Part shown: one piece after another, positions 27,037 through 47,197 of the stretch
Layout of the letters: the number at the start of each line of letters is the position of its first letter
How positions within the stretch are numbered: position 1 is the stretch's first letter
NCBI GenBank assembly: GCA_041743145.1
Contig: JBGTNJ010000032.1
Location: forward strand, 4,692 to 68,691
Direction: 5' to 3'
DNA: 64,000 nt
DNA from: Nitrospira sp.
Lineage (GTDB): Bacteria > Nitrospirota > Nitrospiria > Nitrospirales > Nitrospiraceae
Made by a program: the position numbers and the translations under genes
The notes under the pieces: model-generated
The model's input: only the letters and a program-made list of their open reading frames with translations
What the model was told of the DNA's origin: nothing
The model's database searches: none

Positions 27037-29841
27037 TCAGGTACGTCGCCACCATTTGACCGCTTCCATGATGGCAAAGGGCAAAATGCCCGTTGCCCCC
27101 ATCAATACCCAATCCTCGACCGGCAGTGGGACAGCCTTGAAGATCGGCGCAACGGCCGGAACGGTCAATACGGCCACTTGGATACCGAGCGAGAGCATGA
27201 AGGCAAGGAGCAACGGACGATTCGTTCCGAGGCCCACTTGAAATAGCGACCATCGGTCGCTGCGGCAGTTGAACGCATGCACCAACTGGTTGATCACCAA
27301 CACGGTAAACGCGACGGTCCTCGCTTGTTCGACATCTTGATGAAGACCGTACAGGCTATAGGAGAAGGCCCCCAAGGCAATGGCGCTCAACATCAGCCCC
27401 TCGAGGCCGATCGCAGCCAATCTTCCTCTATCCAACAACCGTGCCTCCGGCCTTCTCGGTCGTCGCTTCATCAAGTCCGGGGCCTTTGGATCGACGGCCA
27501 AGGCCAGGGCAGGAAACCCATCCGTCACCAGGTTCATCCAGAGAATCTGAATCGGGAGCAGCGGAAGCGGTAAACCCAACAGCGTAGCGAAGAGCATGAC
27601 CAGCACCTCGCTCACGTTGCACGATAGTAAGAAATGCACCGCTTTCCGAATATTATCAAAGATCCCCCGGCCCTCTTCCACAGCCGCCGCGATCGAGGCA
27701 AAATTATCATCCGTCACCACCATGTCGGCGGCTTCTTTTGTTACGTCGGTTCCTGTGATCCCCATCGCGACACCGATGTCGGCTGCCTTCACTGCCGGAG
27801 CATCGTTCACGCCGTCTCCCGTCATGGCCACCACCGCGCCGGTAGACTTCCAAGCCTTGACGATGCGCAGCTTGTGTTCCGCCGTGACTCTCGCATAGAC
27901 CGCCACCTGCTCCACAGTCCGGACCAATTCGTCATCGGACAAGCGATCCAGTTCCGATCCGGATAACGACTGTATCGGCTCCTTCACCCCCCTCAGTTCT
28001 TCTGCGATCGCCGTAGCCGTATCCTTGTGATCTCCCGTAATCATGACCGTCCTGATGCCGGCAGCATGGCAGGCTTGCACTGCGATTTTCGCCTCCGGTC
28101 TCAACGGATCCTTCATGGCTGCAAGGCCCAGAAAGACCAGTTGTTGCTCGAGTTCCGAGGAATGATAGGAATCAGGTTTGCGTGCCAGCCGACGCTGCCC
28201 AAGGCCCAGCACACGCAACGCGTGATGCGCAAATTGCGCATTGGCGTCAAGGACCGAGGCACGGGTTGAATCCGACAGAGGTTCGATCGTCCCGTTCGGG
28301 CCCAGGCGATGGGTGCATTTGACAAGGAGGACATCCGGCGCACCTTTCACATAGGCAACCGGCCCGTCCGACGAGTGCCGCACAATCGTCATCATCTTAC
28401 GCTCAGGATCGAACGGAACCTCCCCAAGAAACTGGTGGGTCGGCTCAAGTTCTTCCATACGAAGGCCGGCCTTCGCGGCCGCAACCAGGAGGGCCCCCTC
28501 CGTTGGATCACCGATCACCCGCCAGGTGCCATCTTCCTCCTTCAACGTCGCGCCATTGCAGAGCACGGCGGCTGTCAGGAGCTCGCGCAAACCAGGCGAC
28601 CCTGCTGACTGCTGGGAGCTGAGTCCTGAGTATTTCGGAGAAACCTGTTCTTCTTGGCTCATGAACTCAGCACTCAGCACTCTCGCCTCAGGACTGTTTT
28701 CAGATATCTCTCCCGTGGGATCATACCCCTCACCAGTCACATCAAATACTTTTTCTCCCACGAAAAGCTTGGTCACCGTCATTTCGTTCTTCGTGAGTGT
28801 TCCGGTTTTATCGGAGCAGATGACGGTGGCGGAACCGAGCGTTTCAACCGCCGGCAATTTGCGAATGAGCGCGTTCCGTCGGACCATTCGCGTGACACCC
28901 AGGGAGAGGGTGATCGTCACCACAGCCGGGAGCCCCTCCGGAACGGCGGCCACAGCAAGACTGACTGATGTGAGGAACATGGTCATCGCCGGTTCACCGC
29001 GCAAGTAGCCCAAGACAAAGACGACACTTACGACCCCCAGCGCCAACCACAATAAGGTGTAGCCGAATTGCGCGAGGCGCTGCTGAAGTGGCGTTTCGGT
29101 CCGCTCCGCTTCGGCAGCCTTTTGAATCATGGTGGCGATGTGTCCCAGTTCTGTTTTGAGTCCCGTGGCCGTCACGAGCGCACGGGCCTTGCCCGACACA
29201 GCAACGGTGCCCATGAAGACCATGTTGGATCGGTCGGCCAGCGGCACATCTGGTCGATCGATCGCGTTCGCGCCCTTTTCAACAGGCGTCGATTCTCCGG
29301 TGAGGGAGGCTTCCTGTGTGTGAAAATTTGTCGCGTACACCAGCCGTGCATCTGCCGGAATTCGATCTCCGGCCTCGAGGAGCACGACATCGCCAAAGAC
29401 GACCTCACGCGAGGTAATCACTCTCAACGTGCCGTCACGGACCACCCGGGCCGTCGCGACCGACATTTTTCGCAGCGCTGCCAATGACCGCTCGGCCCGG
29501 AACTCCTGAACAAACCCAAGAACTCCGTTGAGCAACACAATCGTCAAGATGGCCGCCGCATCAAGCCAATCTTCTAAGAGACCGGAGATGATCGCTGCCC
29601 CGATCAGCACCCACACGATGACGCTGGTGAACTGAGACAGGAATAATGAGAGAAGGGAAGGGGGCGGGCTTTCAGGCAGTTCGTTGGCACCTTGGCTATC
29701 CAGCCGGCGCTGGGCTTCCTCGGCGGCGAGACCATGCTCCGCATCGGCTTCCACCTGTCGAGCCAAGTCTTCTGTTGAAAGCCGCCACATGCCGATGTTC
29801 TGCTGCTCTTCGCTTGCGGTCGTGGTGATTGGTGCACTCAT
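27037..29841 (-). CDS. Ca2+-type (IIA) cation-translocating P-type ATPase
   Basis: [48 protein letters not shown]. Confidence 0.93.
28603..28695. repeat. In-frame imperfect palindrome built of heptamer arrays inside the P-type ATPase gene
   Basis: + strand TGCTGAC-TGCTGGG-AGCTGAG-TCCTGAG-T, then a 33-nt spacer, then ACTCAGC-ACTCAGC-ACTCTCG-CCTCAGG-ACT. The inner 14 nt of the arms pair 13/14. Length is 93 nt (31 codons). Confidence 0.75.
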
Positions 29842-30863
29842 TGGAACAACAGCAAGAGCCCGAGACAGTAACCTAGAATAATGGCCAAGCTGTCTGGTTC
29901 GATCAGGAGATATCGTTTCTCAACACGATAGATGATCCCCATCATTGCCGCGCTCATCATGAGGATGCCCCACAAGGCGGTCAAAGCATGTGCGTCCGAC
30001 ACGGCATTGAACAGCGGCCCGCTCTGATAGGCCACGTCTACGAAAAAGAAAGCGGCCATGTTAAAGGCGTTGCTGCCGAACAGGTTGCCTACGGCGAGGT
30101 CGAACGCGCCCAACCGGACTGCAGCCACCGCCGTCACGAGTTCGGGAAGCGAGGTCGTAATGGCCACGAGCGACGTGCCGATAAACGTTGCGGACACACC
30201 GGACTGTTCGGCAATTTGATTCGCTGAACTCGCGAGAAACGGCGCTGCGATCAAGAGAGCGACTGCCCCGAGTCCAAACCCGACGGCAGCCCGTTGTAAC
30301 CCTTCGCGCTTGCTCGATCCCCTCTCCTCCTCACGCGCTTGGCCTTCAACGACTTTTTCTTGCTCACGCTGACGGCGCTTAACGGACTCCTGCCTGAAAA
30401 TGACGCGCATACCGAGGATGTAGAACAGCAATAAAACCATACTGCCCAATCCGATGCCGCCATATTTGACGTCGTGTCTCAGGAGGATGAAAAACGCCGC
30501 GAGCCCTGTCAAGAACATCGCCAACCCCGCGCTTAGGGCATGTTCGAAGGCCGCCTGCTGCCACACCCGTTTCTGCCGATGCATCAAATCGATGAGTCCG
30601 AGCGTCAGCATATTCGTCATGCAGGCACCGAACAAATCACCGGCCGCGAGGTCCGGCGCATCGAGCAGACTCGCGCTGACGGTCGTGAATACTTCTGGTA
30701 GCGACGTGGCTCCCGCCATCAGCACAACGCCGACCCAGAGCCCTCCCAAGCCGGTCAGATCAGCGATCTGATCCCCATAGCGGGACAAGTTCGTGCCGGC
30801 GTAGACAATGACTGCCGCGCTCGCCAAGAAGACCGCCCATGCGGTGAACATCGAGCCTATCAT
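29838..30863 (-). CDS. Sodium:calcium antiporter (CaCA/YrbG-like)
   Basis: Two alpha repeats: ATSLPE..GACMTN and TTSLPE..NLFGSNAFN. 4-nt overlap with the ATPase. Confidence 0.88.
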   Translation of the reverse strand: MIGSMFTAWAVFLASAAVIVYAGTNLSRYGDQIADLTGLGGLWVGVVLMAGATSLPEVFTTVSASLLDAPDLAAGDLFGACMTNMLTLGLIDLMHRQKRVWQQAAFEHALSAGLAMFLTGLAAFFILLRHDVKYGGIGLGSMVLLLFYILGMRVIFRQESVKRRQREQEKVVEGQAREEERGSSKREGLQRAAVGFGLGAVALLIAAPFLASSANQIAEQSGVSATFIGTSLVAITTSLPELVTAVAAVRLGAFDLAVGNLFGSNAFNMAAFFFVDVAYQSGPLFNAVSDAHALTALWGILMMSAAMMGIIYRVEKRYLLIEPDSLAIILGYCLGLLLLFQ

Positions 30864-45820: not shown

Positions 45821-47197
45821 TCATGCCGTGGCGACTCGACACGACCCAGCCAGCACAAACATTCGCGTCACGTTCCACGCCATCGCCACCAGATTCCACT
45901 CGCCTTTGACGTGTTCCAATCCGCGCAGTGAGAGTTGGCGGAATCCCAATATCGCCTTGATGATGCCGATCACCGGCTTCACGGTGCATTTGCGTTTCGC
46001 AGAGAGTGCCCGCCCCGCTCTCGTCAGGAGCACCTGCCGCATCCTCTCCACCTCCGTTGCGTCTGCCTTGAGCAGCGGCGGTCCGGTAAATCGCGCCAGC
46101 GGGTCAGGGTGATGCGCCTCCCGCTTCATCGCACTCAACGGCGTCATGGAATGCTCACCACAGGTCTTGACCTTGGCCTCGGAGACGTACCCCGCATACG
46201 CGACCAGGTTGACCGGCTGCCCCAGTTCGACCGGCAAGGCCTTGAGCTGCTTGAGGATGGGTGCCACCTGTTGTTTGGCATTGCACGCCTGCACGGTGTC
46301 GGTCGTCACGATCAGCAGACTGTCCATGTCTACCGCAATCTGACCGTTGCAGCATTGCTCAAATCCACCACCGGATACTTTCATGATGCGGGATTTTTCA
46401 TCGGTGAGATTGATGTGGTCCGTGTCCTGCGCGCCCGCTATCGGTGGCATAGGCACGTTGCCGCGAGGGAGCTTGCCACTTTTCCTTGATGTGGCCGCAC
46501 GCGTATCCAGCTTGGCCTGGTAGGTTGCCTGCGCCTGCTCGAACCGTTCTTTGGCGCGTGCTTCTATTTTGGTTTTGGCGGCGGCGATGGCTTTGGGCCG
46601 GTCTTCACGCCGGGCGATCTCGGCAGGCAAACTGAGGCCATCCGGTATCTTCTCGTTGTCCGCCGCCTCGGCCAATCCCATGAGCTTCGTGACTTCACCC
46701 TGTGGGTGCGCTTCCAGCCTCTTGATGTGGCCGTAACTCAACGCACAGTGTTTGGATGTGTTGGCTTTGAGCTTGCTGCCGTCCAGTGCCATGTTGCCGA
46801 GCTTGAACACCCCCATTGTGCAGGCGATCATCAGGACTTGCACCATCAGCGCTTCGATGTCTTTCAAAAACCGTTTGCGAAAGGTGTTCAGGGTGTCGTG
46901 GTCGGGGTGCTCATCCGCAGCCACAAAACGAAAGGCGATGGAATCGTAGGTGGCGTGCTCCAGTTTCTGGCTGGAGAACACGCCGGTGGCATAGCCGTAC
47001 ACCAAGATAGAGAGCAGTCATGTCGGGTGAAACGGGGCACTTCCGCTTGTGCCGTAGACACGTTCCATGGCCTTCACGTCCAGTTGCTCGACAATCTCAC
47101 GGATGAATTGGGCCAGATGATGTTCCGGTAACCAGTCATGCATCGACGACGGAAACAGGTAGTGGATGTCACGTTTGATGGGCTTGAATCGGCTCAT
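45821..47197 (-). pseudogene. IS1182-family DDE transposase with an in-frame TGA
   Basis: ATG 47197 MSRFK..YLFP..DWLPE.HLA...FHPT*LLSILVYGYATGVFSS (TGA at 47018-47020). Continues HPDHDT..FR.RF, LDGSK.KAN, NLTD..SRIMK, V.PVIG.IK..LGFR..LRG. Confidence 0.85.

Follow-up and report, generated by a model that had tools for sequence, protein, structure and literature searches.

A heptamer hairpin in the reading frame of a cation pump

The stretch of DNA analysed here (64,000 nucleotides of Nitrospira sp., contig JBGTNJ010000032.1 of assembly GCA_041743145.1; hereafter the window) carries a hairpin made of 7-nucleotide (nt) repeats inside the gene of a cation-transporting P-type ATPase, and this work deals with the relatives, the behaviour and the probable origin of that hairpin. 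The host gene lies at 27037-29841 on the minus strand and encodes a P2-type (SERCA/SPCA/LMCA1-like) pump of 934 residues, as deduced from its open reading frame (ORF) and translation together with Pfam matches. Five P-type ATPase domains are recognised (Cation_ATPase_N, E1-E2_ATPase, Cation_ATPase, Hydrolase and Cation_ATPase_C), and the phosphorylation motif (DKTGT, here DKTGTLT) is present, which places the protein among the P2-type pumps. The solved structures closest to it are those of Listeria LMCA1 (6zhf, E 1.6e-172), human SPCA1 (8iww) and SERCA. The genome (G000) comprises 4.55 Mb in 121 contigs with 55% G+C; its genes were taken from long ORFs and not from annotation, and the genomes of relatives were sampled as one per species and are often incomplete.

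On the plus strand, an array of four heptamers at 28603-28630 (TGCTGAC TGCTGGG AGCTGAG TCCTGAG), each one mismatch away from TGCTGAG, faces a second array at 28665-28692 (ACTCAGC ACTCAGC ACTCTCG CCTCAGG) whose units show 0, 0, 3 and 2 mismatches from ACTCAGC. In the sense of the gene, the latter forms the 5' arm (28665-28692, minus strand; CCTGAGG CGAGAGT GCTGAGT GCTGAGT), which can be read as the nnCTGAG units TCCTGAG, GCGAGAG, TGCTGAG and TGCTGAG. It is followed by a spacer of 33 nt that makes the loop of the hairpin (28632-28664, minus strand; 12 encoded residues) and by the 3' arm (28603-28630, minus strand; CTCAGGA CTCAGCT CCCAGCA GTCAGCA), which encodes (Y)SGLSSQQSA and is free of stops in all frames. 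GCGAGAG is a mutated unit of the 5' arm, and the TGA of an intact unit at that place would fall in frame. Only two units are perfect in this copy, in line with the detection of ACTCAGC x2.6 at 28665-28682 by Tandem Repeats Finder (TRF). A recount returned exactly the architecture that the first-pass annotation had described, i.e. two facing arrays of four 7-mers around 33 nt, with 13/14 pairs in the inner arms (28618-28631 with 28665-28678) and 20/29 in the 29-nt arms; among 63,909 window positions examined at the same geometry, this locus is the only one to reach either value. The stem also extends outwards, AGGCGAC (plus-strand letters of a minus-strand feature, 28594-28600) pairing with CTCGCCT at 28682-28688, that is, with the mutated GCGAGAG unit. 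With this extension the inverted repeat measures 21 nt at 81%, and the extension is also present in the minimum free energy (MFE) structure.

The fold expected by the same annotation is predicted for the sense RNA of 28590-28700, with -40.1 kcal/mol and z = -2.5 relative to dinucleotide shuffles. Rfam at a permissive threshold returned only a chance snoRNA match (E = 0.44) outside the heptamer hairpin. The whole stretch is read in frame in the minus-strand ORF 27037-29841, as had been stated. Of the claim that a unit of 93 nt has been inserted, the in-frame length (a multiple of three) stands and the sharp bounds do not: homologue alignments delimit a hypervariable loop of the nucleotide-binding (N) domain of 37 codons (111 nt; 28594-28704, minus strand) that ends before GLRELL and encloses the whole hairpin, and the outer stem runs to 28594. 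This 111-nt loop has an MFE of -39.4 kcal/mol and z = -3.3.

A hypervariable loop across homologous pumps

The loop was extracted from 39 homologues of Nitrospiraceae and its order. It counts 37 residues here versus 13 in two homologues (L010 and L011) that belong to another family of the order and lack heptamers, and human SPCA1 (8iww) has 10 residues where the window protein has 34. In the second P2-ATPase of this genome, a paralogue on contig C38, the loop is short (~13 residues) and devoid of heptamers, which indicates that the hot spot is specific to this ATPase gene lineage. These alignments bear out the earlier view that the connection is normally much shorter. The outcome proposed to count against an insertion, namely a loop of the same length in distant taxa together with no other copies of the repeat, was found in its first half only: some distant homologues do match the length because the same old hairpin is present there, the reverse of what that test assumed, and other copies exist. 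Loop length varies from 12 to 56 residues within Nitrospiraceae and reaches up to 83 in database proteins.

The periodicity of these loops is that of heptamers and not of codons. Across 32 homologous loops, the autocorrelation at lags 7, 14 and 21 amounts to 0.453, 0.419 and 0.384 versus 0.255, 0.255 and 0.316 in coding segments taken from the same genes as controls, and the codon periodicity at lag 3 drops to 0.261 compared with 0.326 in controls. A repeat generated at the amino-acid level was rejected on these grounds, lag 7 exceeding lag 21 and codon periodicity being lost. The loops also fold better than the controls (mean z of -2.29 versus -0.36), with values below -4 in 8/32 loops and 0/64 controls (Mann-Whitney p = 5e-4, which is only a guide since kin are not independent).

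Depending on the species, the loop is made of nnCTGAG/CTCAGnn, CGTGAGG/CCTCACG, CGTGAAA, GGTTGAG/CCTCAAC, GGTCAAT or CGTCAAT units, sometimes several families side by side. On a tree of 39 rows from which the loop was left out, the rows with CTGAG+CTCAG loops number 10 and require 9 changes, and sister sequences (L003/L004 and L009/L155) differ in heptamer family. The tree splits into two deep clades, each with several genera, so the set includes old paralogues or transfers. At shorter distance, the closest relatives (L161 and L162) have the spacer in common with the window; the closest database proteins, 93% (P0002) and 84% identical, share it too, and their 5' arm is shorter by 21 nt, the length of exactly three units. 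One of them displays a perfect (CTCAGTC)3 CTCAGCA 3' arm, and relatives at 90-91% identity have unrelated loops from other heptamer families.

Two database entries deserve mention beside these comparisons. The representative of cluster P0001, listed as 100% identical, reads QVSQKYS inside the loop where the window protein reads QVSPKYS, which hints at strain-level variation in the spacer. On a metagenome contig (L164:1001-3943, protein P0083), the loop of 83 residues contains three heptamer families in a row, namely CGTGAAA x4, CGTCAAG x3 and numerous CTCAGTC/CTCAGCC units, these last forming a higher-order repeat of ~63 nt.

In all nine loops of the CTGAG type, the arrays stand in one codon register. 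The unit whose TGA could be read as a codon is degenerate in every one of them, and in different ways (GCGAGAG, TCGAGAG, TTAAAAG, TTGAACG, CCAAAAG, CCAAGAG, TGCTGGG and ACGCGAG). This editing of stop-frame units by different substitutions suggests, as far as sequences tell, that selection keeps the frame open. All nine can be aligned along their length, and their consensus structure comprises three helices, with compensatory change in 6/26 pairs. Pairwise identity among these nine lineages is ~0.75 in the arms, with 0.67-0.85 at every codon position, compared with 0.45-0.46 at flanking third positions and 0.39 in the spacer; as the rows were picked for kept cores, conservation is biased upward, and the contrast with the spacer of the same rows remains informative.

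A dispersed and polarised repeat family

The proposal that the hairpin belongs to a dispersed family was confirmed by a search of the genome, which yielded ~25 credible heptamer loci (CTCAGCA/CTCAGTC), both intergenic and in frame. The exact double unit (CTCAGCA)2, CTCAGCACTCAGCA, occurs 9 times in 4.55 Mb, versus 0 for five shuffled units and ~0.03 expected. The pattern CTCAGnnCTCAG is four to five times more frequent than the same cores at other spacings, nn being mostly CA or TC, and CTCAG ranked first among the cores of an unbiased period-7 scan, in which this genome gave no CTCAC arrays. The excess of exact-period arrays of at least 2.5 units is mild (13 versus ~4 expected); the family being small and degenerate, its detection needs the CTCAG core. 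Inverted pairs between genes account for about 12 loci, and 10/11 of these pairs start within 22 nt of the stop of an ORF of at least 150 residues that reads into them. About 7 others are single in-frame arrays in long ORFs; all of them read as CTCAGnn, the orientation free of stops in every frame, and yield LSTQHSA-type peptides. An Lhr helicase carries two of them, and a glycosyltransferase and a sensor kinase (in a linker) are also among the hosts, so that the suggested donation of peptide inserts to proteins extends beyond the ATPase. When the 93 nt were compared with the genome by blastn, the other loci matched over 13-30 nt of the arms only, and the spacer had no second copy. No flanking direct repeat or target-site duplication was seen in the sequence around the ATPase hairpin.

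The Lhr-type helicase (G000:C44:45627-49973, minus strand) has its arrays at 46071-46098 and 46851-46878. Both loops are hypervariable across the genus, with peptides such as SALSPQHSAL, PSPLTPH, DGQWS and GLGVRR that derive from the heptamer families of the ATPase loop. In this respect the two loops behave like that of the ATPase.

The heptamer family found in the ATPase loop is associated with the repertoire of the genome that harbours it, and this association is real but partial. Counted as triple-unit matches of the CTCAGnn and CTCACnn types, respectively, five genomes with CTGAG-type loops have 15/6, 34/2, 64/5, 16/0 and 23/0, and two genomes with GTGAG-type loops have 3/14 (G016) and 4/7 (G317). 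The loop of G239 consists entirely of TTCTGAG/CTCAGAA units, and CTCAGAA dominates in its genome; in G302 and G261, CTCAGCA and CTCAGGA alternate in the genome as in the loop; finally, G283 and G007, whose loops are of the GTCAA type, possess GTCAA-type arrays elsewhere.

The triple unit CTCAGYM is present in 43/60 genomes of the genus, compared with 0/60 for the reversed control pattern, and in 13/28 genomes of the family f1; it is rare elsewhere in the phylum. The four-unit pattern CTCAGYM x4 was scanned more broadly, in one genome per species, and the matches listed include Nostoc, Calothrix, Fortiea, Nodularia and Trichormus, as well as Acidobacteriota (Blastocatellia, Pyrinomonadaceae, Thermoanaerobaculia), Chloroflexota (Chloroflexia), Nitrospirota and others. 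The architecture (TGCTGAG)n-loop-(CTCAGCA)n occurs in several of these listed taxa, with cyanobacterial inverted pairs at L066 and L091. A strict polarity governs the inverted pairs. In this genome, the nnCTGAG array precedes the CTCAGnn array at 18 loci versus 1 (e.g. C96:40123-40190, C80:37957-38009 and C40:111671-111762), whichever the strand, and across many phyla (loci L013-L132) the order is 35 versus 0. The purine-rich nnCTGAG arm, which thus occupies the 5' side, has TGA in all three frames.

Some additional observations concern arrays of other types or of unusual length. The GTGAG/CTCAC and TTGAG/CTCAA families of ATPase loops obey the same polarity, and all families share the core NTGAG/CTCAN. 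The control heptamer GACTCMY x3 (the query read backwards) is abundant in the family f11 of the phylum (e.g. G196, G104 and G238), with up to 29 matches per genome, from which it follows that other lineages have heptamer families of their own. A perfect array of 13 CTCAGCA units is found in Pantoea coffeiphila (L033, 4658-4750), and at least 19 CTGAGGG units run up to the contig end in an alphaproteobacterial metagenome-assembled genome of Aurantimonadaceae (L013, 4715-4848).

Origin and maintenance of the hairpin

Our survey supports the view that the 93-nt stretch belongs to a class of hairpins with heptamer arms that is found throughout Nitrospira genomes and has its usual niche just 3' of stop codons. 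We consider it probable that, in the ATPase gene, the hairpin is a tolerated and repeatedly rewritten passenger, belonging to a repeat class that resembles the short tandemly repeated repetitive (STRR) sequences of cyanobacteria. A copy would have reached a Ca2+-ATPase gene before the divergence of several Nitrospiraceae genera, at the point of the nucleotide-binding domain where the first beta-hairpin is linked to the first helix; in relatives that lack repeats, this link measures 10-14 residues. Two features show why the insert is tolerated: its length is a multiple of three, and one unit in three of the 5' arm, which would otherwise contribute a TGA codon, is mutated; an exposed and unstructured site may have contributed to this tolerance. 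The site has since acted as a hot spot: its arms grow or shrink by three units at a time and adopt the dinucleotide flavour of the other arrays of the genome, and in many lineages GTGAG/CTCAC, TTGAG/CTCAA, GGTCAAT or CGTCAAT families have overwritten them. The data fit a shaping force that acts on the nucleic acid and not on the peptide, the Ser/Leu/Gln/Glu-rich insert being a by-product. Maintenance could result from concerted evolution, in which slippage is combined with gene conversion or re-insertion among dispersed arrays, and selection would then only have to clear stops and frameshifts.

A number of points weigh against this scenario. No copying mechanism was found, and a link with RAYT (REP-associated tyrosine transposase) genes was sought in the genome and not found. 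Three genomes (G332, G015 and G037) contain few arrays of either type, and the TCCTGAG unit of the window copy looks inherited in place and not homogenised. The conserved arms, the consensus hairpin and its 6/26 compensatory pairs are just as compatible with selection for a functional structure, their apparent conservation being itself inflated by the selection of nine rows for kept cores. The prediction that the insert maps to a surface loop holds in part: alignment to solved structures, together with general knowledge of the fold, points to an exposed connection, and the AlphaFold2 model computed from 45 close homologues is too poor to judge exposure (mean predicted local distance difference test score (pLDDT) of 41 and predicted template modelling score (pTM) of 0.24).

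The same conserved arms, alike at all codon positions with a spacer that drifts, would be accounted for by a functional hairpin or by arrays of binding sites, in which a structure of the mRNA or the DNA is read by a genome-wide factor, pauses transcription or translation at a point between domains, or determines mRNA decay, the arms being under purifying selection and the flavours co-evolving with the factor. Besides the compensatory pairs of the three-helix consensus, the enrichment of hairpins relative to control segments and a polarity that stays strict across phyla (35 versus 0) argue in this direction, as does the annotation of similar paired heptanucleotide sites in Geobacter metallireducens as putative binding sites of a global regulator (PMC2700814). 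However, over half of the homologues show a short loop, direct arrays only or no hairpin of significance (L133, L004, L157-160), and three units of one arm are missing from the closest relatives, which implies that the pump works without the structure. Complementarity comes free, moreover, because both arms stem from one repeat family, and no binding factor is known. We therefore regard a functional hairpin as rather unlikely. Little credence is given to a bolder version in which a conserved trans-acting protein or RNA, of a specificity that varies from genome to genome, would recognise the arrays and act on DNA or mRNA both downstream of genes and within a few of them; the fixed polarity and the arm conservation would be its footprint, and the same system, or a directional unit-writing enzyme, would rewrite protein loops at hot spots.

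Selection could also bear on the peptide, as a fast-diversifying disordered surface loop that tunes the regulation or the interactions of the pump; the equivalent loop of SERCA contacts phospholamban. Many lineages do retain a loop of 37-39 residues, and peptides of the VLSxE...SALSTQHSAL type recur; in Borg elements, a function has been proposed for the tandem repeats that give proteins disordered regions (PMC9879509). This explanation is very doubtful: the period is 7 nt and not 3 nt with lag 7 above lag 21, conservation is equal across codon positions, sister lineages carry wholly different peptides (REALGVKRE..., NGQWSMVNG..., PSPLTPH...), the same peptides turn up in unrelated proteins wherever arrays land, and some lineages are back to 12-14 residues. 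Gain or loss of a single heptamer always shifts the frame, and some homologues have 4-5 perfect units (L004, L164), so that the array might act as an on/off switch of the pump, in the manner of heptanucleotide contingency loci; heptanucleotide repeats are said to drive phase variation in NeuO and in the HMW1A promoter. Such a switch is nonetheless highly improbable, given that only two units are perfect here, that no internal stop occurs in ~80 genomic matches and 120/120 database homologues are full length, that the sole indel between close relatives is one of 21 nt in frame, and that on/off switching of a housekeeping pump meets no obvious need in Nitrospira. As for a chance palindrome or purely local slippage unrelated to other loci, it may draw on the 2.6 perfect units seen by TRF and on the modest fold z of the copy alone (-2.5). 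It is already contradicted by the large excess of the same heptamers across the genome and the genus with clean controls, by a geometry unique in the window and by homologous hairpins in the same register in eight other lineages, and deserves practically no credit.

Relation to known repeats and to the host pump

STRR heptamers of heterocystous cyanobacteria (Calothrix, Anabaena/Nostoc) were reportedly described by Mazel et al. in 1990, and are cited in PMC4692102. The Nitrospira repeats resemble them by their tandem 7-nt units, by the coexistence of several families per genome and by many dispersed loci, above chance and mostly non-coding; the units CTCAGCA and CTCAGTC and the architecture (TGCTGAG)n-loop-(CTCAGCA)n are themselves found in Nostoc and Calothrix genomes. 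They differ in that the Nitrospira copy lies in frame in an enzyme, in one codon register across genera and with edited stop-frame units. The Rickettsia palindromic elements (RPEs), attributed to Ogata et al. (2000) and mentioned in PMC10969869, are said to have a full-length consensus of ~100-150 bp. Like RPEs, the Nitrospira palindromes are non-autonomous, occur in frame in conserved genes and add peptide at permissive sites, as in the ATPase, the two Lhr loops, the glycosyltransferase and the sensor kinase linker. Unlike RPEs, they have no full-length consensus, their blastn matches being confined to 13-30 nt of the arms; since copies share heptamer arms and not the spacer, which is unique, they are not a discrete element of that kind. 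A discrete mobile unit or miniature inverted-repeat transposable element was rejected for similar reasons: the arms could pass as inverted repeats, but the interior is unconserved between copies and no flanking direct repeat was seen.

In Geobacter metallireducens, paired tandem-repeat sites and GGACCGG heptanucleotide elements have been reported (Aklujkar et al. 2009, PMC2700814). These are arrays of 7-9-nt units, mostly in opposite-strand pairs at variable distance and in some cases within genes, and the consensus of one class (MTYCTGA) is near the nnCTGAG units of Nitrospira; they were read, untested, as regulator binding sites or regulatory RNAs, and no comparative in-frame analysis was provided (PMC2700814). 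The heptamers GGGNATC and GGGGA(C/T)T of Xanthomonas and Nostoc are abundant simple sequence repeats that are transcribed, over-represented intergenically and preferentially located within 50 bp of stop codons (Rehm et al. 2015, PMC4692102). The intergenic copies of Nitrospira share this stop-proximal niche, yet their units are not G-tracts and form inverted pairs. Repetitive extragenic palindromic (REP) sequences, with BIME and REPIN arrangements, are short palindromes mobilised by RAYT transposases and hypothesised to act in termination or mRNA stabilisation (PMC3116915, PMC3733652). Position after genes is common to both, whereas the tandem-unit arms of Nitrospira have no REP equivalent and no RAYT flanks them. 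In G000, the sole Y1 transposase (PF01797 match, IS200/IS605-type; C28:30121-30476) is frameshifted and likely a pseudogene, and no heptamer arrays lie in the 1.2 kb around this remnant (C28:29701-30900), which led us to discard a REP/RAYT link. Finally, the tandem repeats of Borgs also evolve fast, both between genes and in frame, at conserved hot spots of homologous proteins; their units are longer, direct, A-rich and, in ORFs, a multiple of three (PMC9879509), in contrast to the 7-nt units of Nitrospira, which cycle through the three frames and are arranged as hairpins.

We found no paper on heptamer repeats in Nitrospira, and no detailed literature on heptamer repeats in general existed when those of Xanthomonas were described (Rehm et al. 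2015, PMC4692102). Among bacterial simple repeats, heptamers are the class that is over-represented and yet understood least. What this work adds is a conserved hot spot within a reading frame, stop-frame units that have been edited, arms that contrast with their spacer and a rule of polarity. The locus amounts to a natural experiment in an essential-type enzyme, where frame and stops are under selection and arrays are nevertheless kept, resized by three-unit blocks, edited and replaced. It indicates that the repeats of one genome evolve partly in concert and that the polarity of their hairpins is common to several phyla. On the practical side, these loops provide hypervariable markers for telling close Nitrospira strains apart, and, as a source of low-complexity inserts, they can mislead alignment, domain annotation and structure prediction.

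Regarding the host pump itself, the transported ion is probably Ca2+ as judged from its homologies, and close homologues are named 'Ca2+-transporting ATPase' or 'cation-translocating P-type ATPase [Nitrospira sp.]' in databases. Upstream of the ATPase, a gene at 29838-30863 (minus strand) overlaps its start by 4 nt. The equivalent upstream gene of the relatives L161, L162 and L164 has a Na_Ca_ex domain (PF01699), and a calcium-handling role for the pump fits with this conserved gene pair.

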